DNA from: a virus
IMG/VR virus record: IMGVR_UViG_3300000318_000002
Span: 1-64,000 of that record
Direction: 5' to 3' (one strand)
Length of the DNA: 64,000 nucleotides
The position numbers and the translations under genes were made by a program. Shown here piece after piece: positions 42,891 through 64,000 of the stretch (within the stretch, counting starts at the first letter, position 1; each line of letters begins with the position of its first letter). The notes below the pieces were generated by a model that did not search any database, was not told the DNA's origin, and was given only the letters and a program-made list of their open reading frames with translations.

Positions 42891-43228
42891 AATTTGAAAA
42901 GGCACTAGAATTGGTTAATGTACAATTAAAAAAATCATATCCGTTCTTTAAAGGTGTTGATGAACAAGATGGAAAAGCAATGATTATGATTTGGAATATG
43001 TTTGCACTTGTAAAAAAAAATAAGCTTGACGATTTAGTTTTAATAGCTAAGAACGGAACAGATATAATTTCTATCCCAATTCCCGATGAATTGGAAGACG
43101 AAAAAACGTTCAATGAGGCTGATGAACAAATAAATGAGTCATCCAAACCGAAGAAAGCAACAAAGAAAGATGCAAAAGGCGCAAAGCCCGATGTCATCTC
43201 CGCAACCTCAACAGAACCAAATAGCTGA
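42887..43228 (+). CDS. hypothetical protein
   Basis: AGGAG RBS; ATGA overlap. Confidence 0.5.
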   Translation: MKFEKALELVNVQLKKSYPFFKGVDEQDGKAMIMIWNMFALVKKNKLDDLVLIAKNGTDIISIPIPDELEDEKTFNEADEQINESSKPKKATKKDAKGAKPDVISATSTEPNS

Positions 43229-44843
43229 TACCTACAATAGAGCTTATAAAGAAGGAAGAGCCGCTGTCAAAGAACTTGAAAAGCGGCTCTCTCTTTCTGT
43301 TCCTTCCGGCGTAAAATACGATCAACTCAATAATATCTCTTATAACAATGTTGTTTATCAACGTGATAAAATCCCAGATAGAATCCTTAAAATGGTTGAG
43401 CGTCGGAATCCGGTTGTTGCCGCTGGAATAACGCTCCGGATACAGCAAGCTCTTGAATATTCTAACATTTCCCATGATAAAGATGTTCCCGGTTGGGAAT
43501 TTGTCCCGCGTGATGAGAAACAACAAATGACGCCCAAAATGGAAAAGCAGAAACTTTTCCTTGAATACCTTCTAGAAAAAGGTCATTCTTCTGATTATAC
43601 GTCATTTGATGGTGTTGATGAACCTTCTTATTTCCGTGAAAGAATTACTCAATATGTTCGTGATCGAATAACTATTGATAAAGTATGCTGGGAGATTGAA
43701 CGCGATCTCAAGGGACGTGCTATAGCACTATGGACTCTCGACGGTGCTACAGTGTTCCCTGTACTTCCTGGCGGGTTTTGGGGTTCGTGTTCGATGATTA
43801 CCGCTGGGATGGGAGGGGGTTATACAGAACTTGCCGAAAAGATCCGTCAAGCCCGTCTGACAAATGTTCCTCCAGTCGAAAAAATAGCATTTGTTCAAGA
43901 ACTTCTTTATGGCATGAGTGGCGGCGGGATTGCTGCGGCTTTCACAAATAAAGACATGATTTATGATATTTCAAATGACCTTAATGATGTTCGTTATTAT
44001 AAACAAGGGTTTTCAGTTATTGAAAAAGCGAATATTGCCATAACTGCTTTTATCAATTCCCTTTCCTATAATTCAAACGGTCTTTCCCGTGGTGCTATTC
44101 CAAAAGTAGCAATTTCTATGGGCAAGGAAAGCGGTTACACCGAAGAACAACTTGAAGATCTTCAAGACGAATGGATGGCAAATTTTGAAGGTGTAGATTC
44201 TCAATGGAATATTCCGCTTCTTAATGGGGATGCAAAAGTTCTTAATCTTTTGCCGTCAAATCGTGATATGGAATATCAATCGTACCTTGAATTTACAGGT
44301 GCATTAACTTTTGCCTGTATGGGTATAGATCCTACTGAATGCGGGTTACGATTTAATCAAGCAACTCAGATTATGTCAGAGAACAGCGATGGGAAACAAA
44401 AGTTTTCTAAGAATCGCGGTCTTGCCGAAATGCTGACCTCTTTTGCGTATACGACAAATAGATTCCTTGAACTCAGTGGATATGATTTTGCAAAAGACTG
44501 GAATTTCCGTTTTAACGGATTATCTTTTGAGGATAAAGGTTTTGAGGCTGATCTTAGAGAAAAGGCAATAAGAACAGATACTACAATTAATGAAAGTCGC
44601 ATAAAACGCGGTGACAAACCGATCAAATATGGTGATATTATTGCGAACCCTCAATTTATTCAATATATAATGAATAAAGAACAACAAGAACAGCAAGGTC
44701 AAGATCAAAGTGATAATCAAAATGATTTTGGTAGTGATGATACCGAAGATGATGATCTTGATTCAACCGTTGATGATGCAATGAATGAAGCTTTAGGAAG
44801 TGATTCATCTCAAAAAATGGAAAAAGCGTTTAGATTAATATAA
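43134..44843 (+). CDS. portal protein
   Basis: I..RIQQ, VRD..TID...EIER, ALW.LDGAT, G.S.IE, G.IPK, W.IP, DME, IDP.E.G, NE.R...G.KP. Confidence 0.9.
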   Translation: MSHPNRRKQQRKMQKAQSPMSSPQPQQNQIADTYNRAYKEGRAAVKELEKRLSLSVPSGVKYDQLNNISYNNVVYQRDKIPDRILKMVERRNPVVAAGITLRIQQALEYSNISHDKDVPGWEFVPRDEKQQMTPKMEKQKLFLEYLLEKGHSSDYTSFDGVDEPSYFRERITQYVRDRITIDKVCWEIERDLKGRAIALWTLDGATVFPVLPGGFWGSCSMITAGMGGGYTELAEKIRQARLTNVPPVEKIAFVQELLYGMSGGGIAAAFTNKDMIYDISNDLNDVRYYKQGFSVIEKANIAITAFINSLSYNSNGLSRGAIPKVAISMGKESGYTEEQLEDLQDEWMANFEGVDSQWNIPLLNGDAKVLNLLPSNRDMEYQSYLEFTGALTFACMGIDPTECGLRFNQATQIMSENSDGKQKFSKNRGLAEMLTSFAYTTNRFLELSGYDFAKDWNFRFNGLSFEDKGFEADLREKAIRTDTTINESRIKRGDKPIKYGDIIANPQFIQYIMNKEQQEQQGQDQSDNQNDFGSDDTEDDDLDSTVDDAMNEALGSDSSQKMEKAFRLI

Positions 44844-47742: not shown

Positions 47743-49155
47743 ATGAAAAAAACCGTTAAACAGGTTGAGCAAAAAGAATATCAAGAAGTTAAATACATAC
47801 GTGAGCTGACCGAATATTGGTCGGCTTACGTTTCTTCGGTTATCAATGAAATATTTGTTGGTATAGGAACAACTCTTGGTATTTCTGAAAACGAAGCATA
47901 TAAACTAATAAAAAATGATCCGTCAAAACTTGAGAAAGCTGGATTCTTTAAAAGCATATTTGAAAAGTTTAAAAATATTTTTAAGTATCGTGTTAAAAAA
48001 TTCAGACCAAAGGTAAAACTATTTAATAAAGATGGATCAGTTATTGATGAAAAAAGATGGCAAAAAGTTCAGGACGATATCCATGATTTTTGGGTAAAAC
48101 AAACTCAAAAAAATTCAGAGGATATGACTCTAAAAGGTTTTATTCTTGGCAAGAAAACAAGTAAATATAGAGAAGAAAAGAAGAAGAACTTTGAGAATAA
48201 ATCTTTTGAACAGATAGATGAAGAAGAATATAAGAATAAAATGCCGTCGCGGATTGAAGAAATATATGCAGATTTAAAACCGTCTGAACGCCGGACTATG
48301 AATAAAGCCTTGTCACGTGTAGCAATGCACGTAGCAGACGTTGAAAATAAAGTAAAAAGCTCAATACGAAAGAATGTAGTGCAAGGTCTTAATGCCGGTA
48401 AAAGCCCAACGCAAATAGCGTCTGACCTTTACTGGAATGTTCAGGGAGGATCTAAACAATCAGCAGACGTATTGAGACGCGATTGGAATAGGATTGCTGA
48501 AACAGAGGTTCAAAGCATTTATGAAGCCGGTATTCTTGCGCCTCATGAAGAAGAGGCAAGGGAATCAATAGAAAATCCAGAAAAAGCACAATATTTTGTT
48601 TATACAGGCGGAACTTGTAAGTGGTGTAAATCCCAACAAGGGACTATTGTCAGGTTACTTCCGGAAGACGTTATAAGAGATAAAAATAATGACAGTCTTT
48701 CGTCAATGGGTATTGATGATTATTTTACAGATATCGCTGTTTGGATTGGTAAAAATAATGTCGGACGGTATTCGTATAAAGATCCTTACTGGCAAATCTG
48801 TACACCTGCTCATCCGCACGGGGTAGCTACGTTACATCCTATAGATTTTGAAAAAGAATTTTACAATGAAAATACGGGACGAGTAGAAGCCAAATTGACG
48901 CAGTATTCAGGAATACCAAAGAAAAAAGATTTTGAGTTTACACCGGAAGAAATAGAAAATAGAAAGCCTCATTTTGTCGGCAATAACAGAGTGATGTTTA
49001 ATGATAATTTGTATGAAAGAGTATCTCCTGATGAATATAAATCATCTTTAAAACGCTGGAATGATAACCCTAATCTTCCGATTCCCGTATCGGCAGGGAC
49101 TACAAGTGATAGACAAATTTTTGAAGCTGCGGAGAAAAATAGAAATGATTCTTGA
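47743..49155 (+). CDS. MuF/SPP1 gp7-like head morphogenesis protein
   Basis: RDWNRIAETE, CKWC, PAHPHG; position in head module. Confidence 0.75.
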   Translation: MKKTVKQVEQKEYQEVKYIRELTEYWSAYVSSVINEIFVGIGTTLGISENEAYKLIKNDPSKLEKAGFFKSIFEKFKNIFKYRVKKFRPKVKLFNKDGSVIDEKRWQKVQDDIHDFWVKQTQKNSEDMTLKGFILGKKTSKYREEKKKNFENKSFEQIDEEEYKNKMPSRIEEIYADLKPSERRTMNKALSRVAMHVADVENKVKSSIRKNVVQGLNAGKSPTQIASDLYWNVQGGSKQSADVLRRDWNRIAETEVQSIYEAGILAPHEEEARESIENPEKAQYFVYTGGTCKWCKSQQGTIVRLLPEDVIRDKNNDSLSSMGIDDYFTDIAVWIGKNNVGRYSYKDPYWQICTPAHPHGVATLHPIDFEKEFYNENTGRVEAKLTQYSGIPKKKDFEFTPEEIENRKPHFVGNNRVMFNDNLYERVSPDEYKSSLKRWNDNPNLPIPVSAGTTSDRQIFEAAEKNRNDS

Positions 49156-53644: not shown

Positions 53645-56600
53645 ATGAACAAGTCTCAAATAAAAGCACTTATCAGGAAAAATATTAAGATAGATAATCT
53701 TGAAAAATCAAAAGAAATGTTAAAAAATCAATATAATATATCCTTTGGGAGATATGAACCAGAAGAAATCAGGCAATCTCTTATAAAGGGACTACCGGTT
53801 CTCGTACAGGATCATTTTATTATAGGAATGGACGAAGCAAAACAAAACACTTTTGAGGATACCGACGGAAAAGTTTTTAGTATAGATGTCCCTGTAAAAG
53901 CAATTATTGTAAATGATGAAATAGATCAGGACGATATTGATGCCTCAACAGATAATTTTGCAATCATCGGACGCAATGAATGGAAAACGCCGATTAATGA
54001 ATTTGATAATATTATTGCACCGCTTAGAAATGGGAAACCTTTTCTTCCGAAAACTCCTGTTATTTTTAATTTTCTTAATCTTACAGATGAAATAAAAAAA
54101 ACAGATATTGTTTCTAAAACTGTTGGAGCGCAAATTTATCTTTATGATAAAGACGGATACATCGATAATGCTTTTCACGAGATAGGTCATATCTTTTGGA
54201 GAACCCGATTGACCTATGACGAGCAAGAATTATTCCAGGAAATCTTTGATAGTGGAAAACTTTCGAGTGCCATTTATGAATACGAATGGGAAAAGAAATC
54301 AGCAGAAGAAATTTTCTGTACAGTTTATAAATGGTATTTAAAATCAATTCTGATAAATACATCTTTCCGTAAAATTCTTTCTTTTGAAGAACCAGACGGA
54401 TATGATCTTATGGTTTCAATTGTTCAGCGTATTGGAGAAGACAATATCAGGTCGGATGTTTGGGAAAGTGTAGAAGACAAGGTTAGAGAATACCTAAATC
54501 CTCGATATGATACAACGACAAATAGTTTTATCCGTAAACGTGGTGATTTTGATGCTATCAAAGATGTCGAAATACCTTCAGAACTTTTGGAAGATATTTC
54601 TTCAGTTCAAGATGGAATAAAATATGTTAATCTATTTAAAGGTAAAAATCCTGTTCCCGTAAAAGAATATTCTATTGATTTTGTAAGGGCAACCGAAGAT
54701 TTTACTAAAAAACTTGAGAAGTCGCGTCCGATTATCCCCGCTGGGAAAGAAGTTTTGTACATGGATATGGACGGAGTTATCGCAGATATAGGAACAGGAT
54801 ATAAAGAGTTGTCCGGACGTAATATCTTTAAAGATGATACTTTTACTGTTCGACAGACGATAGGTTTGATCCCTCATTTTTGGCGTAAATTGCCCGTCCT
54901 TCCCAAAGGGAAAGAGCTTTACGATATGCTCAAAGATTATTACGCTATTATATTTCTGACAACTCCGATGGATTCTATAGATTCTTGTAAGATGGATAAA
55001 ATAGCATGGGCGAAGCAGTATTTCCCTGAAGTTAAAACAATTCTATTCAGTGATAAAAAAGAAGAATACGCAGCGTCAAATAAAAGCGTATTGATAGATG
55101 ACTATGGTAAAAACGTAAAAGCATTTAATGATGCCGGAGGAAGTGCTATAAATTTCAAAGAAAAAAATACCGAAATAGTATCGCAGATAAAAGAAATATT
55201 TAATCCTAAAGATGAAATTGCTGAAATAAAAGAGCAATTAAAATCTATGCAAGTTGATCCTTCCCCGTTCGAAGCACAAAAGAAAACGGGAAATTATAAA
55301 AAGGGTAAAATATTATTCAAAGGGCTTTCTCTTATAATCGAAAATCCGAAAGGATCTATCCGTTTTGGTCGCGGATCTGACGGTAAGCGTTGGATGAATA
55401 TTATGAAGGCACACTACGGATATATTGATACAAAGCCAGGAGAAGAAGGTGCTGATGGCGATAAAATAGATTTCTTTCTTGGTGAAAATTTATCAACAAA
55501 TAAAGTGTTTGCCATAAATCAGGTGTGTCCGGAAACGGGGATGTTTGACGAAATCAAGTTGGTTATGGGTTGTAATACCGCCGAAGAAGCAGAAAAGCTA
55601 TATCGATCATGTTATTCTAAAAACTGGACCGGATTTGGTTCAATAGTCCAGACGAATACAAAGGGCATACGAGAATACATCCAAAACGGGTATAGATATG
55701 AACCTTTTGGGGATAATTTTATAGAGCAAGAACCGCTACAAAAAGCAACATTTTTAGAAATGCTAAAAGCCAGAATTACAAAATATGTAAGACGTGAACC
55801 AGACGGTAAAGGCGGATGGAAGTATTTTTATAAAAACAATATAAAGAATAATACAATCCAAAATCAGGAAGAACATAAAGATAGAAAAATATCTCAAACC
55901 GAAACTCCTGAATTTAAAAAGTGGTTTGGGGATTCAAAAGTTGTAGATAAAAATGGTAAACCCTTAATCGTTTATCACGGAACAACGGCTTCAAATATTA
56001 AAGAATTTAAACCTGAGAGATTACACGGACGAAATGGAATTTATTTTACAGATAAACAGGAAGAAGCCCAATTATATGGGTCAAATATAATAAAAGTCTA
56101 TGTAAAAATGGAAAATCCCAAAATTTTTGATGCTGAAGGTAAATCTTTCAATGATATTTTTGACAAAATTGAGCCACTATTAAGATTCTTAGGCAAGTTT
56201 GAGAATGATGGTATAATTATAAAAAATGTATATGATTCCCCTTCCGGGAAGAAGGAGGGGCGAAAATCTACAACATTTATTGTAGATGATGCTTCACAAA
56301 TAAAATCAGCAACAAATAATAATGGTAATTTTGATCCGAATGAATCTGATATGACAAAAGCACACGATTCTTTTGATATTTCAGATAAAGAAATTGTACA
56401 ATCCTTGGATCAAATAAAAAAAGAAATAACCGTCAACCATGATTTTGATATTCCTTATTTATGCGGATACAGCAAAGACGCTAAAACAATTTACATCGAT
56501 AGACATCTTCCAAAGATGAAAACACGTGGACATTTTGATTCTGATGATGCTCTGATAATGCACGAAGCTACTGAAAAGGCAATGGAGAAAACATATCATC

Positions 56601-56821
56601 TGGAATATGCCAAAGCTCACCAGATCGCATTACGTGCCGAAAAAGCATATGTAGAATCTCAAGGTATTTCATGGAAAGGTTATAATTCCTTTATGCAAAA
56701 GTACATTAAGAAAGCTGGAGATGAGAGACTTACGGAAACTCCTAAAAATCTGGATTTGCAACCATATCGTAATTGTCATGATTATTCCGAGTTGACAAAA
56801 ATTTCAAAGGTGCAAAAGTAA
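53645..56821 (+). CDS. large polyvalent protein 1: zincin, NT5C/HAD nucleotidase, pyrophosphatase-like, ADP-ribosyltransferase-like and second HExxE domains
   Basis: HEIGH; YMDMDGV...LIDD; IENPKGS.R...HYGYI...ADGD.IDFFLG...FDE.K; TPEFKKWFGDSKVVD.NGKPLIVYHGT...GIYFT...QIKSAT.NNG.FD; MHEATE. Confidence 0.85.
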   Translation: MNKSQIKALIRKNIKIDNLEKSKEMLKNQYNISFGRYEPEEIRQSLIKGLPVLVQDHFIIGMDEAKQNTFEDTDGKVFSIDVPVKAIIVNDEIDQDDIDASTDNFAIIGRNEWKTPINEFDNIIAPLRNGKPFLPKTPVIFNFLNLTDEIKKTDIVSKTVGAQIYLYDKDGYIDNAFHEIGHIFWRTRLTYDEQELFQEIFDSGKLSSAIYEYEWEKKSAEEIFCTVYKWYLKSILINTSFRKILSFEEPDGYDLMVSIVQRIGEDNIRSDVWESVEDKVREYLNPRYDTTTNSFIRKRGDFDAIKDVEIPSELLEDISSVQDGIKYVNLFKGKNPVPVKEYSIDFVRATEDFTKKLEKSRPIIPAGKEVLYMDMDGVIADIGTGYKELSGRNIFKDDTFTVRQTIGLIPHFWRKLPVLPKGKELYDMLKDYYAIIFLTTPMDSIDSCKMDKIAWAKQYFPEVKTILFSDKKEEYAASNKSVLIDDYGKNVKAFNDAGGSAINFKEKNTEIVSQIKEIFNPKDEIAEIKEQLKSMQVDPSPFEAQKKTGNYKKGKILFKGLSLIIENPKGSIRFGRGSDGKRWMNIMKAHYGYIDTKPGEEGADGDKIDFFLGENLSTNKVFAINQVCPETGMFDEIKLVMGCNTAEEAEKLYRSCYSKNWTGFGSIVQTNTKGIREYIQNGYRYEPFGDNFIEQEPLQKATFLEMLKARITKYVRREPDGKGGWKYFYKNNIKNNTIQNQEEHKDRKISQTETPEFKKWFGDSKVVDKNGKPLIVYHGTTASNIKEFKPERLHGRNGIYFTDKQEEAQLYGSNIIKVYVKMENPKIFDAEGKSFNDIFDKIEPLLRFLGKFENDGIIIKNVYDSPSGKKEGRKSTTFIVDDASQIKSATNNNGNFDPNESDMTKAHDSFDISDKEIVQSLDQIKKEITVNHDFDIPYLCGYSKDAKTIYIDRHLPKMKTRGHFDSDDALIMHEATEKAMEKTYHLEYAKAHQIALRAEKAYVESQGISWKGYNSFMQKYIKKAGDERLTETPKNLDLQPYRNCHDYSELTKISKVQK

Positions 56822-56845
56822 ATTTGTAAAAGGACGTAGTATCAC

Positions 56846-59800
56846 ATGAAAAACCCTCTCTTTTCCTCTTTCTCTCCTCAACAATTAAGATTTGCTATAG
56901 AGTATGAAATGCGATTCCGAGATGATCCTAAAATCGCGTCAGATATCGCAATCGGGCGTTTAACGGAAAACCCAAAATATTATGATCAGTTTGCAAAGAT
57001 GGAGAAAGCTCGTATTACAAAATATGTAAGACGTGAACCCGACGGTAAAGGCGGGTGGAAATATTTTTATAAAAATAATGTAAAAAAAGAATCAAAGGAA
57101 ATAGTTGAAGGTACTTCTGAATGGGCGGAAAGAATGTTTATTAATAAAGAAATACCAGAGGGATGGTACGTTCATGGAAGAAGTAGAGGACATAATGAGG
57201 ATTTGACTACAGGAGCAGTGACCCAATGTACTAAAAGATGGGATGTTGCAGAACATTATGGTCGGTCAGGTTCGATGTTCCTTATTCATCCAGATAAAAA
57301 TGCAAAAGTATTAGATCTTTCATCATCAAATACTAAAGATATGGATATGGTTGTAAATCTTTTTACTAATCAATATGTAAAAGATATAATGCCAGATGAA
57401 ATACAGGAATTATTTATTCCTTTAGATATGAAAAATGAATTAACTATAGAAGAAAAAAAAGAACATATTGAAAAAGTAGTAAGAAAAGAATTTTCTCCTA
57501 AAGATATCGTGAATTCGGCTGAAGCTTATGACAGTTTAGAGTTAATGGATTATTTTGATAGATTAAATATAGCAGATTTTGTAATAACTCCTGATGGTGC
57601 GGTGATAACTGGAGATTTGGATAAAATAAAAAAAGTAAAAATCCCGAATCATCAGCTGTTAGAGAAAGCCAATCAATTATCTATCGGAACGAAAATAGAA
57701 TCAGAACATAAAGAGACAGTTGATTTTATCCGTTCTTATGTTAAAAAAAATGGGAAGATGCCTCTTGATAAGGAAATATATAAACATATTTCGATGAATC
57801 ATACTGAAAAAGAAATGAAAGATTATTATACTCGATTGATTCAAATGGAGAAACAAGCCAAAAAAGATAAAAAGCGTCCTCAGATTGAAATAGATGTTAT
57901 AAAATTTCTTATAGATAATCCAAACCCTCCTGATTCAAAAATACATGCTTTTGCAGAGAGCAAAAGTCTTGATCCTTCAAAACTTGAAACAGTAGTCTAT
58001 CGGATAGCAACCGAAAGAGCAAAGATGAGTACAGATATGTTTAAAGCCCGTATCGTCAAATATATCCGAAAAGAACGAATGAAAGACGGTAAGTTCAAAT
58101 ATTATTACGCAGACGGTACGCACTCGACAACCGAAAAAGAAAAACCCTTTAATGTCGTAGAAGCTTTTAAAAATTTCTTTGGTCTATCTGATGAGAAGAT
58201 TGCAAAAGAAAAGATTAAAAAAGACTATTACGAACATAAAATTTCAGCAAAATATAATTTATCTTTACTCGGTTGGGCAGATCATCTTTCAGAATATTTT
58301 ATTCATAAAGATAAATGGGACAGTAAGTTTTCAAATAAAACTCCCGAAACAAAAGCGGATGATGCCAAAAAGGATACAAATGCCGAAAAGAAGGCTTCTA
58401 CACCTTCTGAAAAGCCTAAGTTTAATACCAACGCAATGAAAGAAATTTATGATCTTTATAATAAAAAGGCTGAAGAACCTATAAAAGAAACCGCCAAAGA
58501 GTCAGAGGCTATTGTCGAGCCTGTTAAAGAAACATCGGAACAAAAAGCAAAAGATATTCAAATATCAACTGCGATAAATACTGTAACTCCTGAAAACAGA
58601 AATGAAAAAGAAAATGAAATCCTTAATATCCCTGAACTAACAGAACCAGAAAAAGAAAATATAATAGAGCCAACGGTTGAATTTGTTCCTGATTATGAAG
58701 TAGTCTCTATCCCTGGATTAATAGTTGAAGGTAAAAATAACAGTCAACATTTATTAAAAAGTTATTTAAAAGTAAAGCCGAAAGATATTTTACTACAAAA
58801 TGAAAAAACTATTCTTACCAAAGAAAAACCATCATATATTCCTGAAGTTGATGAAAAATTTCTTAAAGGAGCAGGATTTGTTATTCCAACATACAAACTT
58901 GAAACTGACAAATATTTAATTCAGACTAATGCAAAACGGAAAGTATGGACAGAAGATAAAAAATGGCATATCGCAGGTGAAGATACTTATATTATAGTGA
59001 ATAGAGATGTTCTTGCAGCAACTTATGATTATTTTATCAAGAAAGCCAAGATGTTAAAGAAAGAAGAAACAAAAAAAAGACAAGAAAAATATCCTGATTA
59101 TAAAGTTACAGCAGAAAGAATTACAGTTTTAACCGATAAGAAAATGTCGTATGATCAACAACGAGTATTTTCTTATTTCATTCGGAATGTAACGGGTTTT
59201 TCTGGCGGTGGTTCAAAGTTCATGTGGGAAAAATATAAAGAAATAAGAGAAGATATTGCTCAAAAAACATCGGATATGGAAATACAGCTTGAAGATTATT
59301 ATAATGCTCATGCGAAAGGAAGAGAAACTTCATATGGAGATAAAGGAACAAATGATTCTCTTCTAAGCACTTTGGGAGTAAAAGTAAAAAGACAAAATGG
59401 CGCGGAGATTACATCAAAAGAAATAACCGAAATAAAAGATGCTGTTGATGACGTATTCTCTGTTTTTGGGAATAGATCTTCTATGGCTAAAAATTTTGGG
59501 TTGAAAATATCTCATGCTGGGGATAAGAATATGCACGCTCGGAACGCAGCAGGGATATTTATACCCTCTCTTAAGGTAATCGGCGTAACAACTCAATATG
59601 GAAATGGAACGACTGGATTTGTTCTTGCTCATGAATGGTCTCATTTTATGGATTTTTATGTTGGTGAAAAAAATGACAGACATTATATTTCCGATAATCC
59701 GAACCATGTTGCAGGCGAAATAGCAGATACGTTTAGAAAAAACATGAAAAAACAACAAAAATCTGCATACTATAATCGTACTTGTGAATGTTTCGCAAGA

Positions 59801-60049
59801 GCATTGGAGCAATATTGGGCTATTAAAACAAACAGTACAGATATACTTCAAAGATGGGATAGTTTAGGGACACATCCCGAAGAAAATATTTTTAAAGAAA
59901 AGGTAATGCCACTCATTGATAGATTTTTATCTGAAAATGACCAATTACTCAAAGCTTTTTTCAACGATAATTTCAATAAAAATAAAAATATCTTGATTAA
60001 ATCTTTTGATCGTGTAAAAGGTGTATTTGTTTACAGGAGAATGAAATAA
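56846..60049 (+). CDS. large polyvalent protein 2: DUF5661-like repeats, possible ART-like domain, C-terminal LPD1/zincin-like domain
   Basis: A..IA...L.ENPKYY; GTKIESEH...YYTRL; YVHGR; LAHEWSHFMD...YY....ECFARA.EQY. Confidence 0.75.
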   Translation: MKNPLFSSFSPQQLRFAIEYEMRFRDDPKIASDIAIGRLTENPKYYDQFAKMEKARITKYVRREPDGKGGWKYFYKNNVKKESKEIVEGTSEWAERMFINKEIPEGWYVHGRSRGHNEDLTTGAVTQCTKRWDVAEHYGRSGSMFLIHPDKNAKVLDLSSSNTKDMDMVVNLFTNQYVKDIMPDEIQELFIPLDMKNELTIEEKKEHIEKVVRKEFSPKDIVNSAEAYDSLELMDYFDRLNIADFVITPDGAVITGDLDKIKKVKIPNHQLLEKANQLSIGTKIESEHKETVDFIRSYVKKNGKMPLDKEIYKHISMNHTEKEMKDYYTRLIQMEKQAKKDKKRPQIEIDVIKFLIDNPNPPDSKIHAFAESKSLDPSKLETVVYRIATERAKMSTDMFKARIVKYIRKERMKDGKFKYYYADGTHSTTEKEKPFNVVEAFKNFFGLSDEKIAKEKIKKDYYEHKISAKYNLSLLGWADHLSEYFIHKDKWDSKFSNKTPETKADDAKKDTNAEKKASTPSEKPKFNTNAMKEIYDLYNKKAEEPIKETAKESEAIVEPVKETSEQKAKDIQISTAINTVTPENRNEKENEILNIPELTEPEKENIIEPTVEFVPDYEVVSIPGLIVEGKNNSQHLLKSYLKVKPKDILLQNEKTILTKEKPSYIPEVDEKFLKGAGFVIPTYKLETDKYLIQTNAKRKVWTEDKKWHIAGEDTYIIVNRDVLAATYDYFIKKAKMLKKEETKKRQEKYPDYKVTAERITVLTDKKMSYDQQRVFSYFIRNVTGFSGGGSKFMWEKYKEIREDIAQKTSDMEIQLEDYYNAHAKGRETSYGDKGTNDSLLSTLGVKVKRQNGAEITSKEITEIKDAVDDVFSVFGNRSSMAKNFGLKISHAGDKNMHARNAAGIFIPSLKVIGVTTQYGNGTTGFVLAHEWSHFMDFYVGEKNDRHYISDNPNHVAGEIADTFRKNMKKQQKSAYYNRTCECFARALEQYWAIKTNSTDILQRWDSLGTHPEENIFKEKVMPLIDRFLSENDQLLKAFFNDNFNKNKNILIKSFDRVKGVFVYRRMK

Positions 60050-63000
60050 ATGAAAAAATCCCTACTGAAAATTAAAGATAAATTTTTCATTAATATGGAA
60101 AAAGCTATTCCCGAATCAACATATGAACATTCTGATAAACTTGGAGAAGGGGCTAAAAAAAGAAAAAAACTACATTTAAATAAAGATAAATTTGACGCAG
60201 TTATGCATGAATTTAAACGTGGGACATTACGTTCTGGGTCAGGTGAACATGTAAAAGATCATAATCAAGCGGTTGCGATAGCAATGCATGAAAGTGGAAT
60301 GGCGAAAGCAGAATCTCCCGAAGTCCAGGCGAAGATTAAGAAAGTTATGGACGAATTTAAAGCTGGAAAACTAAAATCAAGTAGCGGACAAATAGTAACT
60401 GATCGGAATCAGGCTTTGGCTATCGCATATTCATATTTTAAGAAGGCAGATAACTCGATGACAAAAGCAAATGAATGTTCTTTTCTTGATGATGTCTATG
60501 CGGCAAAAGAAAATACCCTTATACCTTCAGATATAGATGTTTATCAACTCGCTATGGGAATACAAGTAGAGTTCGGGGAACATACAAATGATATCCAGAT
60601 TGCAATGCAAATAGCAATGGATCATCTTGAGGAAAATCCGGTATATTATACTAAATTGCAAGAATCAGGGCTTGTAGATGAAGTGTTGTTACATACCTAT
60701 GAAATATCAAATATTCTCCGTGGAGCATTACCATTTAATGCAGGGTTAGAGCCTATGGAGAAGGCAAGGATTACGAAATATGTAAGACGAGTTCCGAAGC
60801 CATCGGGAAAAGGTTATATTTATTTCTATAATAAAGCCGAATACGAACATTATAAAAAAACAGGAGAACTTCCAACAAAGCAAAAGTCTATTTTCTCTAA
60901 AATTATATCATTCTTTGGTCTTGGATCTGATAAAGAAGCCAAAGAAAAAATTGATAAAATGTATGAAAGCCATAAGACAGTTTTGACAGGTGTTGGGAAA
61001 GATGCTTTCACCGATCATGTCATAGAATATATAACAAACAAAGAAAAATGGGACAAAAAACTTTCAGCACCAAAAGCAGAGCGCAAAGAGTCAAAAGAAG
61101 GTGCTAAAAAAGAACCTACAGAAAAGAAAAAAGTAGTTAAGAAAGAAGGAAAGAAATTTAATATTTCTGTAATGCGTGTTGTTGCGGGGATAGTTAATGA
61201 GAAGGAAAATAAAAAACAAAATGCAGGATCAAAAGATAAAGACAACTTTGAGACTATGCCGAAAGATGAAAAGAAATGGTATGAAAATATATTAGAAAAA
61301 ATAGAAAATATTACCAATGAAGATGATAAAAGTGGATTAAAGGAATGGATATCTGATTGGACTAATACTAAAGGATCTGTTCGTAAATCGTTGGCAAAAG
61401 ATATTGAAGATAAATTGTCTAATATTCAAGGCAAAGAAGAAAAAAATAAATTAAAAGAAAATTTGTCTAACTCACGATTGAAAAAATTTGAAGATTCAGG
61501 GAAAGAAGCTTTTGAAACCACCAAGAAAGATTGGGTAGAGATGCAACGAGAAGAGCGGCGAATTATGGGGCAAAATGAAGGTAATGGGAATCCGAATGCT
61601 CCTTATTCTGATTACGAAAACTATCATAATGATTCTGTAAGACGTGCTATTGAAGAAGGTAAAACGGTTTCTCCTGAAGTGTTGAAGGATTATCCTGAAT
61701 TAAAAAAAGACAATAGCATAATCAAAGAAATTGATAAAGTCAAAGATGAGATAAAAAAACAAATAAATACAGAAGAAGATATCGAAGATGAAGAAACTAA
61801 ACTTCAAAAAGAATCAGATGAACATTTGAAACAAAAACCCGAAAAGGTAGAAAGACCTTCCGTTCTTGATAAGGGCGGAGATAATTTCTGGAATGGAAAA
61901 ATTTATGGTAATGAAAAATATGGTTTCAATATATATTTAAACAATGAAAAGGAAGTTATTCCTAAAAGTGTAGCCCAAAAATTAGAGCAATATGTTGAAT
62001 ATCGTCAAAAATTAAAGTCATGGAAAGAAAAACAAGAAACTATTGATAATAAACAACTTAAATTTAAAAATAAAAATGAACAACTACAACAAATAATTGA
62101 TAAGCCGATAGAACATATTAAGAAAATAGCTGAAGATAACTTTTTAACACAAGTTGATGGGATGTTTGTTAGTACTGATTATACGGGTGCAAAAACAATT
62201 ATTGTTGATGATGTAAAAGAACAAAAACTTATAGATCGTATGAAAGAATGGACTCCTAAAGATTTTAAAGAAATGTTAAAGGAGAGAATAGGAACAATTA
62301 CAAAAGAAAGCAGTAAAAAAGAAAATGAAGTTAATACTGTATTAAATAAAACTATAAATGATAGTATTGATAACGAGTTTGTAGAACATCTTAAAAATAT
62401 TGTTAAAAATCGTTTAATCGAATTGAAAGCAGAATCGCTCAAACAAAATAAAGATAAAGAGGAACAAGATAAAAAGAATAAACTTATACAAGAAAAAATT
62501 AATGAAGCTGAAAAGAAATATATCCCAGAAGGCTATTGGAATGGTAAAGTTTATGGACGTCATGGTAACTACAATATTTATGTAGATAATAAAAAAAGAG
62601 CTATAAACGATAATGTTGCTTTGGAGCTTATGGGGGGCGAAAAAAAATCAATGTCAAAAGCCGAAGAACTTGAAGATATGTTAAAAGCCAAAAAAGCAAT
62701 CACCGGGGAAGTACATACCTATAAAAACGGCAAGAAATATCGTAAAGAAGGCGATAAATGGGTACTCGTAACAAGTGGTAAGAACAAAGTCAAAGGGAAA
62801 CCGGAAGAGAAAAATAAAAAGAAAAAATCTAAAACTGGAGGAAAAAATAAAATATCTAAAGAAGATCGGAGTTTAATAAAAAATACTCTGAAACGAGTAG
62901 CTTCGGTAATTGCAGAAGCTCTTGCTGGTAAAAATCCCAATGCTCAAGCCGCACAGGGGATCGAACATACAGGAGAAGATTTAAAATCAAGTAGTCATAA

Positions 63001-63055
63001 AGGCTTAACAGAAAAACAAGTTGACAAAAATAATAATAATAACAATAAAAAATAG
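60050..63055 (+). CDS. large polyvalent protein 3: two DUF6496-like domains, DUF5661-like domain and charged helical regions
   Basis: VMHEFKRGTLRSGSG...QAVAIA and KVMDEFKAGKLKSSSG...QALAIA; MGIQVEFGEHT...IAMDHLEENPVYYTKL. Confidence 0.75.
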   Translation: MKKSLLKIKDKFFINMEKAIPESTYEHSDKLGEGAKKRKKLHLNKDKFDAVMHEFKRGTLRSGSGEHVKDHNQAVAIAMHESGMAKAESPEVQAKIKKVMDEFKAGKLKSSSGQIVTDRNQALAIAYSYFKKADNSMTKANECSFLDDVYAAKENTLIPSDIDVYQLAMGIQVEFGEHTNDIQIAMQIAMDHLEENPVYYTKLQESGLVDEVLLHTYEISNILRGALPFNAGLEPMEKARITKYVRRVPKPSGKGYIYFYNKAEYEHYKKTGELPTKQKSIFSKIISFFGLGSDKEAKEKIDKMYESHKTVLTGVGKDAFTDHVIEYITNKEKWDKKLSAPKAERKESKEGAKKEPTEKKKVVKKEGKKFNISVMRVVAGIVNEKENKKQNAGSKDKDNFETMPKDEKKWYENILEKIENITNEDDKSGLKEWISDWTNTKGSVRKSLAKDIEDKLSNIQGKEEKNKLKENLSNSRLKKFEDSGKEAFETTKKDWVEMQREERRIMGQNEGNGNPNAPYSDYENYHNDSVRRAIEEGKTVSPEVLKDYPELKKDNSIIKEIDKVKDEIKKQINTEEDIEDEETKLQKESDEHLKQKPEKVERPSVLDKGGDNFWNGKIYGNEKYGFNIYLNNEKEVIPKSVAQKLEQYVEYRQKLKSWKEKQETIDNKQLKFKNKNEQLQQIIDKPIEHIKKIAEDNFLTQVDGMFVSTDYTGAKTIIVDDVKEQKLIDRMKEWTPKDFKEMLKERIGTITKESSKKENEVNTVLNKTINDSIDNEFVEHLKNIVKNRLIELKAESLKQNKDKEEQDKKNKLIQEKINEAEKKYIPEGYWNGKVYGRHGNYNIYVDNKKRAINDNVALELMGGEKKSMSKAEELEDMLKAKKAITGEVHTYKNGKKYRKEGDKWVLVTSGKNKVKGKPEEKNKKKKSKTGGKNKISKEDRSLIKNTLKRVASVIAEALAGKNPNAQAAQGIEHTGEDLKSSSHKGLTEKQVDKNNNNNNKK

Positions 63056-63082
63056 GACAAGGATAAAAAGGAATAATCCAAA

Positions 63083-63265
63083 ATGCACATTGTAATTGAT
63101 AATCCGGTAATGTCAAAGTGTTCTTGTGGAAGCGTATATAAGGTTTCCAACCCTGATGAAGAAGTTATAAAAAATGTCAGGGCGGTATACGTTGATAAAA
63201 AGGCAAATTTGAGAAAAATACTTTGCCGTAAGTGTAAAACTTGGATAGAAGAAAAAATTTCTTGA
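63083..63265 (+). CDS. small zinc-ribbon protein
   Basis: KCSCG...LCRKCK; AAGGA RBS; directly upstream of the protease. Confidence 0.6.
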   Translation: MHIVIDNPVMSKCSCGSVYKVSNPDEEVIKNVRAVYVDKKANLRKILCRKCKTWIEEKIS

Positions 63266-63346
63266 CATTCTTCTAAATGAGTTTTTATTGAAACTGCTAT
63301 TGAAAGTCCGTTAAAGGAATAAGCATGAATACTAACGAAGGTATAA

Positions 63347-64000
63347 ATGTTATTCCGCGTAAACGGGTTTTACATCTCGAATCTACAGAAAGCAAAAGAC
63401 GATAAACTCGTTACTGTTGATATAATCGCAAATCATCTTACCGAAGACCAAGATAATGAAGTCGTTCTCAAAGAAGCCTTTGACGATGATACGGTCAAAG
63501 AATTTCTCGATATCGGCGTTATCGAATTTTGGCATGAATCAAAAAACGAACTTCTTACCAAAAAAGAAAAAAATGATAATCTTATAGGTCGCCCCGTAGC
63601 TTTTCGTTGGGAAAATGGGCTTCCGGTTGTTACTGCGACACTTTCAAAAACTCATCCTATCGTACAGTCAATGATGCCTCATCTTGAATCGCAAAATCCT
63701 GTATACGCCGCTTCAATAGGCGGTTCTAAAGTCGTACTCGAAGCAAAAGATAATTCGGGTGAAATACATAAAATAATCCCCAAAATACGTTGGGATCATC
63801 TTGCTATAGCTCCTCAAAATATGGTCGTGAACCGTGAACCTGGAATAAATGTCAAGATGCTTGAAAAAGCAAAATCTATATATAATTTTAGCAATTTTAC
63901 TACTCTTGCAAAAGCTCTTGAAGCCCCCGGTTCGGTAGACGCTCTTTATTCAACTCCCGGCGGTGCTATTACCAAACAATCTCTTGAAAAAAGTATTTCC
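63347..64000 (+). CDS. prohead (capsid maturation) protease, partial (runs off window)
   Basis: Manual translation MLFRVNGFYISNLQKAKDD...EDQDNEVV...GVIEFWH...IGRP...AASIGG...DHLAIA...VVN; His/Ser motifs of HK97-type maturation proteases. Confidence 0.8.
   Translation, partial: MLFRVNGFYISNLQKAKDDKLVTVDIIANHLTEDQDNEVVLKEAFDDDTVKEFLDIGVIEFWHESKNELLTKKEKNDNLIGRPVAFRWENGLPVVTATLSKTHPIVQSMMPHLESQNPVYAASIGGSKVVLEAKDNSGEIHKIIPKIRWDHLAIAPQNMVVNREPGINVKMLEKAKSIYNFSNFTTLAKALEAPGSVDALYSTPGGAITKQSLEKSIS

Follow-up and report, generated by a model that had tools for sequence, protein, structure and literature searches.

Bases 1-64000 of the 84,813-bp IMG/VR virus record IMGVR_UViG_3300000318_000002 (hereafter the window, 64,000 nucleotides in all; CheckV completeness of the record ~99%) contain three consecutive genes for large polyvalent proteins, P0001-P0003, which are located between the genes of the portal and MuF-like proteins and those of the prohead protease, the scaffold-like protein and the major capsid protein (MCP). 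Our analysis suggests that the prohead protease probably segments these three proteins, which would be head-loaded effector polyproteins, at a short motif, [ML]-x-K↓A, in which the arrow marks the bond to be cut. Capsid-cargo polyproteins of this kind had been the subject of an original prediction, and its central idea is partly supported, by a conserved motif restricted to the head proteins, by the placement of this motif at domain borders, by the fold of the protease and by the presence of effector domains; the exact form that it gave to the motif and the peptidase modules that it proposed did not fare as well. The three genes of ~1000 aa that it placed before the protease are indeed there (53645-63055), with a 60-aa open reading frame (ORF) intervening.

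The motif is concentrated in the head proteins at a frequency that chance does not explain. In the eight proteins of the head module (portal, MuF-like, P0001, P0002, P0003, protease, scaffold-like and MCP), [ML].KA occurs 29 times where 2.9 occurrences are expected analytically, whereas in the remaining 118 ORFs of the genome 8 are observed and 8.6 expected. When each protein was shuffled with its composition preserved (z up to 13), M.KA was found to be present 10 times in P0001-P0003 (0.5 expected), 7 times in the portal, MuF-like, protease, scaffold and capsid proteins (0.3 expected) and only once in the other 118 ORFs (1.9 expected). The claim of a motif density particular to the head module thus withstands a correction for composition, and every one of the motif instances originally listed is present. 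The motif had, however, been written more broadly as (L/M/F)-x(0-1)-K-(A/S), and of this only [ML]-x-K↓A is enriched. Several variants were consequently dropped: [ML].KS (5 versus 3.1 expected), F.KA with Phe at P3 (1 versus 1.3) and the forms with zero spacing (3 versus 3.9 and 6 versus 4.2) are all at chance, and both [IV].KA and [ML].RA, the latter with Arg at P1, occur at expectation.

The same preferences emerge when the genome is pooled with its relatives, which are 11 IMG/VR loci with 10-kb flanks and 46-60% protease identity obtained from protein-guided scans. At P3 only Met (11.7-fold) and Leu (7.9-fold) are enriched, the other residues being at about 1-fold; at P1 it is only Lys (9-fold) and at P1' only Ala (9-fold). 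Because no other residues are enriched at these positions, the motif is taken to be [ML]-x-K↓A, and the pattern is, as read from the sequences, that of a protease-like specificity. Serine is probably tolerated at P1', since the two K↓S sites of P0001 (residues 19-22 and 357-360) correspond to K↓A in relatives. For most of the 29 sites the flanking sequences are unrelated to each other.

The relatives repeat the pattern of the window. Their 21 large (≥600 aa) proteins encoded upstream of the protease have 89 copies of [ML].KA (13.8 expected) and their protease, scaffold and capsid proteins 113 (8.8 expected), in contrast to the 4 copies (8.0 expected) in 115 downstream proteins, which are mostly tail components. 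In each relative the capsid protein has exactly one site (residues 24-26), the scaffold 6-8 and the protease 2-5, and the motif has been kept while its flanks diverged. The original observations that the motif flanks the protease core, ends the portal and occurs in the MuF-like protein are thereby extended, for these sites are both present and conserved. In all 10 relatives compared, the portal ends with [ML]xK↓A and a tail of 5-7 further residues (mostly [IV]xLI), and the acidic tract that precedes it is variable; the LEK↓A site of the MuF-like protein is kept near residue 60 in relatives L028, L030 and L033. Two further occurrences, MQK↓A near the portal N-terminus (43170-43181) and MNK↓A in the MuF-like protein, were not conserved in the relatives. 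Among distant homologues of the C-terminal module of P0002 the motif enrichment is progressively lost; hence, the motif is a property of this phage clade and is not required by the folds of the domains that it separates.

The sites coincide with borders between the domains of the cargo proteins. In P0001, whose domain edges are defined by Pfam and PHROG, LEK↓S (357-360) precedes the nucleotidase domain NT5C, LQK↓A and MLK↓A (698-709) lie between the InPase and ART domains, and MTK↓A (903-906) follows ART. In the AlphaFold2 model of this protein the sole stretch of residues 1-691 with a pLDDT below 50 is 357-362, which contains LEK↓S, and the next such stretch, 692-719, contains LQK↓A and MLK↓A; NT5C and InPase, which have no [ML]xKA between them, are modelled as a single unit. 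Structural support of this type covers two of the five P0001 junctions. The earlier claim that the motif recurs at domain borders agrees, therefore, with the Pfam edges and with these two poorly ordered stretches, but not with the 21/22 site of P0001, which falls in a confident helix. In the relatives the DMDGV with which NT5C starts is preceded, at a distance of 8-12 residues and in five different upstream contexts, by a K↓A site; the end of the ART domain is conserved as FDPNExD M[TF]K↓A and is then followed by differing domains, and the DUF6496 unit is preceded by a site both N-terminally (in P0003) and internally (at residue 221 of L007_5751).

Comparisons between genomes and between genes point to the same borders. 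When the polyvalent proteins of different genomes are aligned, 14.9% of the ends of homology blocks are within 5 aa of a site, as opposed to 4.2% for random positions, and a proportion as high as that observed did not arise in any of 500 randomisations. Homologues encoded as separate genes were sought among 1.84 billion representatives; this search revealed proteins homologous to P0001 that end at 688-700 (15 proteins), 355 and 907/908, and others that start at 362/365, although some N-terminal "starts" elsewhere are probably contig-end fragments. The C-terminal domain of P0001 (902-1058) is 94% identical, from 902, to part of a 235-aa protein on another contig. P0001 itself resembles a fusion of separate genes, as homologues of ~690 aa correspond to its residues 1-690, one of 325 aa to 367-690 and one of 347 aa to 1-347 (P0221-P0225, P0238, P0248 and P0239).

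By their sequences P0001-P0003 are polyvalent proteins of the type described by Iyer et al., a class already known but not named in the original prediction. This assignment is made because they contain the InPase and ART-PolyVal families and, as a weak match, LPD1, and because homologues of the P0002 module are fused to many effector domains. The matches in P0001 are to InPase (PF18823, E 2.5e-42, residues 543-680), ART-PolyVal (PF18760, E 2.7e-21, 768-896) and NT5C (E 3.7e-6, 370-518), and its nucleotidase region matches the PHROG 5'-3' deoxyribonucleotidase (E 1.6e-23). A Foldseek search with the whole P0001 model returned matches to the NT5C/HAD (deoxyribonucleotidase) fold only, and none for the fold of the N-terminal HEIGH domain. 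The C-terminal module of P0002, of ~480 aa, belongs to phrog_22901 (E 5e-82), has a weak LPD1 match and the motif HEWSH, and its homologues are fused to RadC, RelA/SpoT, NUDIX, ParB, methyltransferase and GNAT domains. Pfam searches with the single predicted fragments gave only matches below the cut-off, namely LPD1 (E 3.5e-4), Peptidase_M91 (E 0.01) and a third DUF5661. Of the effector domains in the original prediction, NT5C, InPase and ART-PolyVal are thus confirmed by Pfam, but what had been called peptidases amounts to HExxH motifs (HEIGH at 178 of P0001 and HEWSH at 929 of P0002; P0003 has none) together with the LPD1 and Peptidase_M91 matches just mentioned. The Lys content of the three proteins is 13.9%. 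In cultured phages, among them Cellulophaga phiST and the PB1-like Pseudomonas phages, relatives with an InPase domain bear the annotation virion protein or minor head protein.

Two short sequence elements accompany the sites. A 25-aa module, K↓ARITKYVRR...G..Y.Y, directly follows four of them, in P0001 (706), P0002 (52 and 398) and P0003 (236). At the DNA level the copy in P0001 and the first one in P0002 share ~90% identity, and many codons have changed in the other, diverged copies. Many sites of the relatives are likewise followed by a module, which is either the one just described or of a second type (K↓AKK.P[IV]GT...GxW..V), and one homologue of the 25-aa module has been annotated by JGI as a WGR-domain protein. 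The other element is an N-terminal leader of ~15 aa, common to cargo and protease, which is composed of an alternating hydrophobic strand, a [DN][GN] turn and an x[YF][IV]x strand and which ends in [ML]xK↓A. By analogy with the T4 CTS, it may be a capsid-targeting leader.

The enzyme proposed to act on these sites is the 290-aa product of the gene located between the portal and the scaffold and MCP genes, in the order protease, scaffold-like protein, MCP that is also found in Listeria phage A511. Searches with its sequence found nothing in Pfam at E ≤ 0.01 or among the sequences of the PDB, its lone PHROG match is to a family of unknown function, and it is outside the curated Pfam protease families S77/S78/U9/U35; the fold is therefore a predicted one, and the assignment rests on fold and context. 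An AlphaFold2 model built with 46 homologues has a confident beta-rich core (11-160), a disordered segment (161-218) and a helical C-terminal domain. The only significant Foldseek matches of this model are the three chains of T4 gp21 (5jbl; E 3e-5, probability 1.00), with which it aligns in VIA-align at Z 12.3 and an rmsd of 3.3 Å over 146 of 164 residues; the herpesvirus assemblins/proteases score next, with Z 5-7. What had been a guess, that this gene encodes the prohead protease, is accordingly supported by a modelled fold of the T4 gp21/assemblin type. Residues H63 and S123, the candidate catalytic His and Ser, are invariant in the 46 homologues, and so are L13/K15, K174/A175 and L187/K189/A190; the latter two sites are invariant despite their location in the disordered linker. 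Predicted cuts at 15/16 and 174/175 would leave a 159-residue core, residues 16-174, that matches the folded domain. T4 gp21 trims itself, and the predicted release of the core by these two cuts resembles such self-trimming.

The capsid protein supplies a connection between the predicted specificity and a cut annotated in a cultured phage. In tblastn it matches 508 phage records, mostly of the Herelleviridae (Staphylococcus, Bacillus and Listeria phages), and it is 24% identical to A511 Cps (BLASTP E 4e-18). Its K26↓A27 aligns, by both BLASTP and HMMER, with Lys23↓Ser24 of A511 Cps, the cut site given by the mat_peptide annotation of NC_009811, in which the mature protein begins at residue 24 (EDALK↓SFTTGYG); the Lys-Ser cut of A511, which the original prediction had cited, is thus given an aligned position here. 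The resemblance to A511 includes the gene order, a cut after Lys at the aligned capsid position (ALK↓S in A511, LLK↓A here) and, close to the N-terminus of the protease, a site (GSLEK↓SHKGDDK in A511, SNLQK↓AKDDK here). In both phages, moreover, the linker of the protease copies the N-terminus of the mature capsid protein: FMK↓SWTTGHGTTPDTQ in the A511 protease corresponds to ALK↓SFTTGYGITPDTQ in Cps, and LAK↓ALEAPGSVDALYSTPGGAIT in the protease analyzed here corresponds to LLK↓ALAAPGSVDDLYGTPGGAIT in the capsid, with 69% identity over 35 residues (protease 181-215 and capsid 18-52, from a shared L-x-K↓A-L site). This capsid-like segment may serve as a decoy substrate or for docking to the lattice. 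A511 differs in having Ser rather than Ala at P1', in its lack of polyvalent cargo genes before the protease and in a protease that is barely alignable by sequence (E 0.07). Since A511 shares both the capsid cut position and the layout of the protease and capsid sites, the comparison of sequences indicates that the specificity for Lys followed by a small residue is ancestral to this head module. Bacteroides phage DAC19 (L038, MT074139.1 97884-139290), which is cultured, has a capsid protein that is 30% identical, with LQK↓A near its N-terminus, and a looser [ILVM]xK↓[GSA] motif, weakly enriched, that clusters in the genes assigned putatively to portal, protease and scaffold. This phage might serve for experiments on the protease lineage; we consider it a lead rather than evidence.

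Taken together, these observations lead us to propose the following scheme. P0001-P0003, as strings of unrelated effector-type domains, would be loaded into the prohead, where a serine protease of the gp21/assemblin fold would cut them after the Lys of [Leu/Met]-x-Lys↓Ala. With this motif the same enzyme would trim the N-terminus of the capsid protein, cut the scaffold up into nine peptides (15-43 residues), a fate in keeping with its clearance from the head, remove the last five residues of the portal and the first ~65 of the MuF-like protein, and release its own core from its flanks. The outcome would be about a dozen folded modules within the head (HEIGH, NT5C+InPase, ART, the DUF6496 units, the DUF5661 units, the LPD1/HExxH module and the basic C-terminal module), and these would leave with the DNA at infection. 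If the K↓A bonds and the two K↓S sites of P0001 are used, the predicted fragments are 1-21, 22-359, 360-700, 701-708, 709-905 and 906-1058 for P0001; 1-54, 55-274, 275-400, 401-1036 and 1037-1067 for P0002; and 1-18, 19-86, 87-139, 140-238, 239-870, 871-879 and 880-1001 for P0003. We infer both the cleavage at internal sites and the packaging of the three proteins in the virion, the latter from gene position, family and the annotations of the InPase-bearing relatives; injection and a host-directed role are suggested by the example of Alt and the internal proteins of T4 and by the proposals of Iyer et al. 2017 (PMC5512222). More tentatively, the head protease could be a general polyprotein processor for injected effectors: new domains would become fused behind [ML]-x-K↓A, a hairpin-like leader would load the chain, and one enzyme would release the modules.

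It could be argued that the motif is a genuine prohead-protease site of which only the terminal copies are used, the internal ones being protected so that the large proteins remain approximately full-length in the head. The precedents favor such restraint, as the mapped cuts in ejected proteins of T4 and SPN3US all remove N-terminal propeptides (PMC10052503), and the P0001 21/22 site is inside a modelled helix. Nonetheless, we think this rather unlikely, because the internal sites are conserved as much as the terminal ones, sit in disordered linkers and coincide both with natural gene boundaries and with the breakpoints of module shuffling; without selection for cutting, it would be difficult to account for their being 10 times commoner than expected at internal junctions. 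It is improbable, too, that the motif is not scissile at all and is instead a docking or targeting signal for head assembly (through binding of protease, scaffold or shell) or a linker feature that spread with duplicated modules. That four sites belong to the repeated 25-aa module, with two copies ~90% identical in DNA, and that the N-terminal leaders resemble a shared hairpin signal would be in keeping with this; however, the flanks are unrelated at most of the 29 sites, cleavage has been mapped to the homologous position of A511, and a scaffold of 262 aa with eight sites looks more like a protein to be degraded than one to be docked.

The published model for polyvalent proteins (PMC5512222) would have P0001-P0003 processed by their own zincin-like HExxH domains, with the prohead protease handling capsid and scaffold only. 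P0001 and P0002 do carry HExxH (the latter with a weak LPD1/M91 match), but the same motif, with the same P3, P1 and P1' preferences, is found in capsid, scaffold, portal and protease, all of which are without a metallopeptidase, and the site in the capsid protein is the homologue of the position at which A511 Cps is cut in maturation. P0003 lacks HExxH altogether yet has six sites; therefore, an in-cis metallopeptidase cannot account for the pattern, and this explanation appears to us very improbable. An origin of the pattern in chance or in the composition of Lys-rich proteins, for which only the high Lys content of P0001-P0003 speaks, has been refuted by the composition-preserving shuffles, by the variant motifs KS, [IV].KA and [ML].RA, which are at expectation, and by the repetition of the pattern in 11 relatives, and it can for practical purposes be discarded.

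Segmentation of the polyproteins by the prohead protease nevertheless has several points against it. The whole clade is uncultured, being known from soil and wetland metagenomes, and the evidence is computational throughout; the counts across the relatives are, moreover, phylogenetically non-independent. The head proteases of T4 and SPN3US remove N-terminal propeptides and do not part separate folded domains (PMC10052503), and internal inter-domain cuts would be a departure for this reason. Some of the sites may be inaccessible. The P0001 21/22 site is doubtful and may not be cut, because it is within a confidently modelled helix, and the structural evidence stops short of the 905/906 site and of the ART and C-terminal domains, because past residue ~720 a shallow alignment makes for a poor model of P0001.

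The coordinates of the genes and sites are collected in Table 1. Near-identical sequence is present in metagenome sequencing runs from soil and wetland, and no RNA data set was listed among these runs. When the region was compared by megablast with 50,697 phage records, no match was returned, so that no cultured phage among them is similar at the DNA level. An ORF of 60-73 aa occupies the equivalent place, in the gap between the last polyvalent gene and the protease, in most of the relatives.

Table 1. Genes, predicted cleavage sites and associated elements (window positions unless given as genome positions).
Feature	Position	Strand	Remarks
Portal protein	43134..44843	+	569 aa; Pfam Phage_portal E 1.6e-13, phrog_12
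Portal C-terminal site MEK↓AFRLI	44817-44828 (gene end 44843)	+	kept in relatives
MuF-like minor head protein	47743..49155	+	470 aa; phrog_2468 head morphogenesis, E 5e-5
MuF-like site LEK↓A	47929-47940	+	
Polyvalent protein P0001	53645..56821	+	1058 aa; leader, HEIGH domain 22-359, NT5C+InPase 360-700, KY-tag+ART-PolyVal 709-905, C-terminal domain 906-1058
P0001 site LEK↓S	54713..54724	+	residues 357-360, between HEIGH domain and NT5C
P0001 sites LQK↓A, MLK↓A	55736..55771	+	bonds 700/701 and 708/709; after InPase, before KY-tag and ART
P0001 site MTK↓A	56351..56362	+	bond 905/906, after ART domain
Polyvalent protein P0002	56846..60049	+	1067 aa; DUF5661, KY-tag, 220-aa module, second weak DUF5661, KY-tag, C-terminal HEWSH/LPD1-like module
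P0002 K↓A sites	56999-57010, 57659-57670, 58037-58048, 59945-59956	+	bonds after residues 54, 274, 400, 1036
Polyvalent protein P0003	60050..63055	+	1001 aa; 18-aa leader, two DUF6496 units, DUF5661, KY-tag, long Lys/Glu-rich region, basic C-terminal module
P0003 K↓A sites	60095-60106, 60299-60310, 60458-60469, 60755-60766, 62651-62662, 62678-62689	+	bonds after residues 18, 86, 139, 238, 870, 879
25-aa module copies	55760-55849, 56999-57088, 58037-58120, 60755-60835		
Shared N-terminal leader	60050-60106, 63347-63394		also in relatives L008, L013, L016, L020, L023, L024
Small CxxC...CxxC ORF	63083..63265	+	60 aa, two CxxC pairs; between P0003 and protease; ORF call
Prohead serine protease	63347..64219	+	290 aa; last 219 bases beyond window
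Protease sites LQK↓A, LEK↓A, LAK↓A	63383-63394, 63860-63871, 63905-63916	+	
Protease linker copy of capsid N-terminus	63905-64000; genome 65018-65122 (capsid)		
Acidic scaffold-like protein	genome 64179-64967		262 aa; beyond window
Major capsid protein	genome 64967-66472		501 aa; phrog_752 E 1.3e-59, SU10_MCP; beyond window

Polyvalent proteins occur widely, in phages as well as in conjugative elements, and the manner of their conversion to working units has so far been guessed, in the form of the in-cis metallopeptidase. The locus described here provides a testable alternative that is composed of one motif, one identified protease and a predicted map of fragments. It also provides a method: the motif of a head protease is derived from the capsid, scaffold and protease self-sites and is then used to scan the cargo proteins, which would make the mature injected effectors predictable from sequence in uncultured phages. 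If the head protease is indeed a general polyprotein processor, motifs taken from the capsid or scaffold of any phage could be used to foretell which mature effectors its polyvalent proteins really yield. Head-protease biology would also be extended from the removal of propeptides to the separation of folded enzyme domains.

The system would combine two themes that are already known, polyvalent proteins and the processing of ejected proteins as in T4 and phiKZ. T4 gp21 cuts proteins that are co-injected with the DNA, including an ADP-ribosyltransferase (Alt). Like this enzyme and phiKZ gp175/SPN3US gp245, the protease of the window would be an assemblin-fold head protease with a short consensus that cuts capsid, scaffold, itself and co-injected proteins (PMC10052503, PMC9026906), with N-terminal leaders that end in a site; the known enzymes, however, cut after Glu (T4 gp21 at L/I-x-E, phiKZ gp175/SPN3US gp245 at A/S/G-x-E), whereas this one would cut after Lys. 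In SPN3US all of the mapped cuts remove propeptides, which are N-terminal in every substrate except the protease itself (PMC10052503), in contrast to the sites described here, which lie between several folded enzyme domains of one polypeptide. The polyproteins of the picornaviruses, processed by 3C-type proteases, are similar in that a single translation product has a short motif at its domain borders and one dedicated viral protease, but the analogy is a functional one only, as these are replication and structural proteins cut in the cytoplasm and not in a prohead.

The closest comparison is with the polyvalent proteins of Iyer, Burroughs, Anand, de Souza and Aravind (2017), who defined the InPase, ART-PolyVal and LPD1 families from such proteins of phages and conjugative elements, proposed that the domains are released by an in-cis zincin-like metallopeptidase without defining a cleavage motif, and noted in passing that a few carry a C-terminal assemblin-like peptidase (PMC5512222). 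P0001-P0003 resemble them in the unrelated effector domains that are strung together (ART-PolyVal, InPase, LPD1 and an MPTase-like HExxH), in the location of their genes among the head genes, by MuF and portal, and in their predicted packaging and delivery with the DNA; they differ in that the evidence points to a prohead serine protease encoded separately, next to them, and to a defined [ML]-x-K↓A motif present at almost all junctions. Neither polyvalent proteins nor the cutting of co-injected proteins by head proteases at a consensus is thus without precedent; what is new is the Lys↓Ala specificity, as read from sequence, and its systematic placement at the inter-domain junctions of polyvalent proteins, which suggests that the prohead protease, and not an in-cis metallopeptidase, is their processing enzyme.

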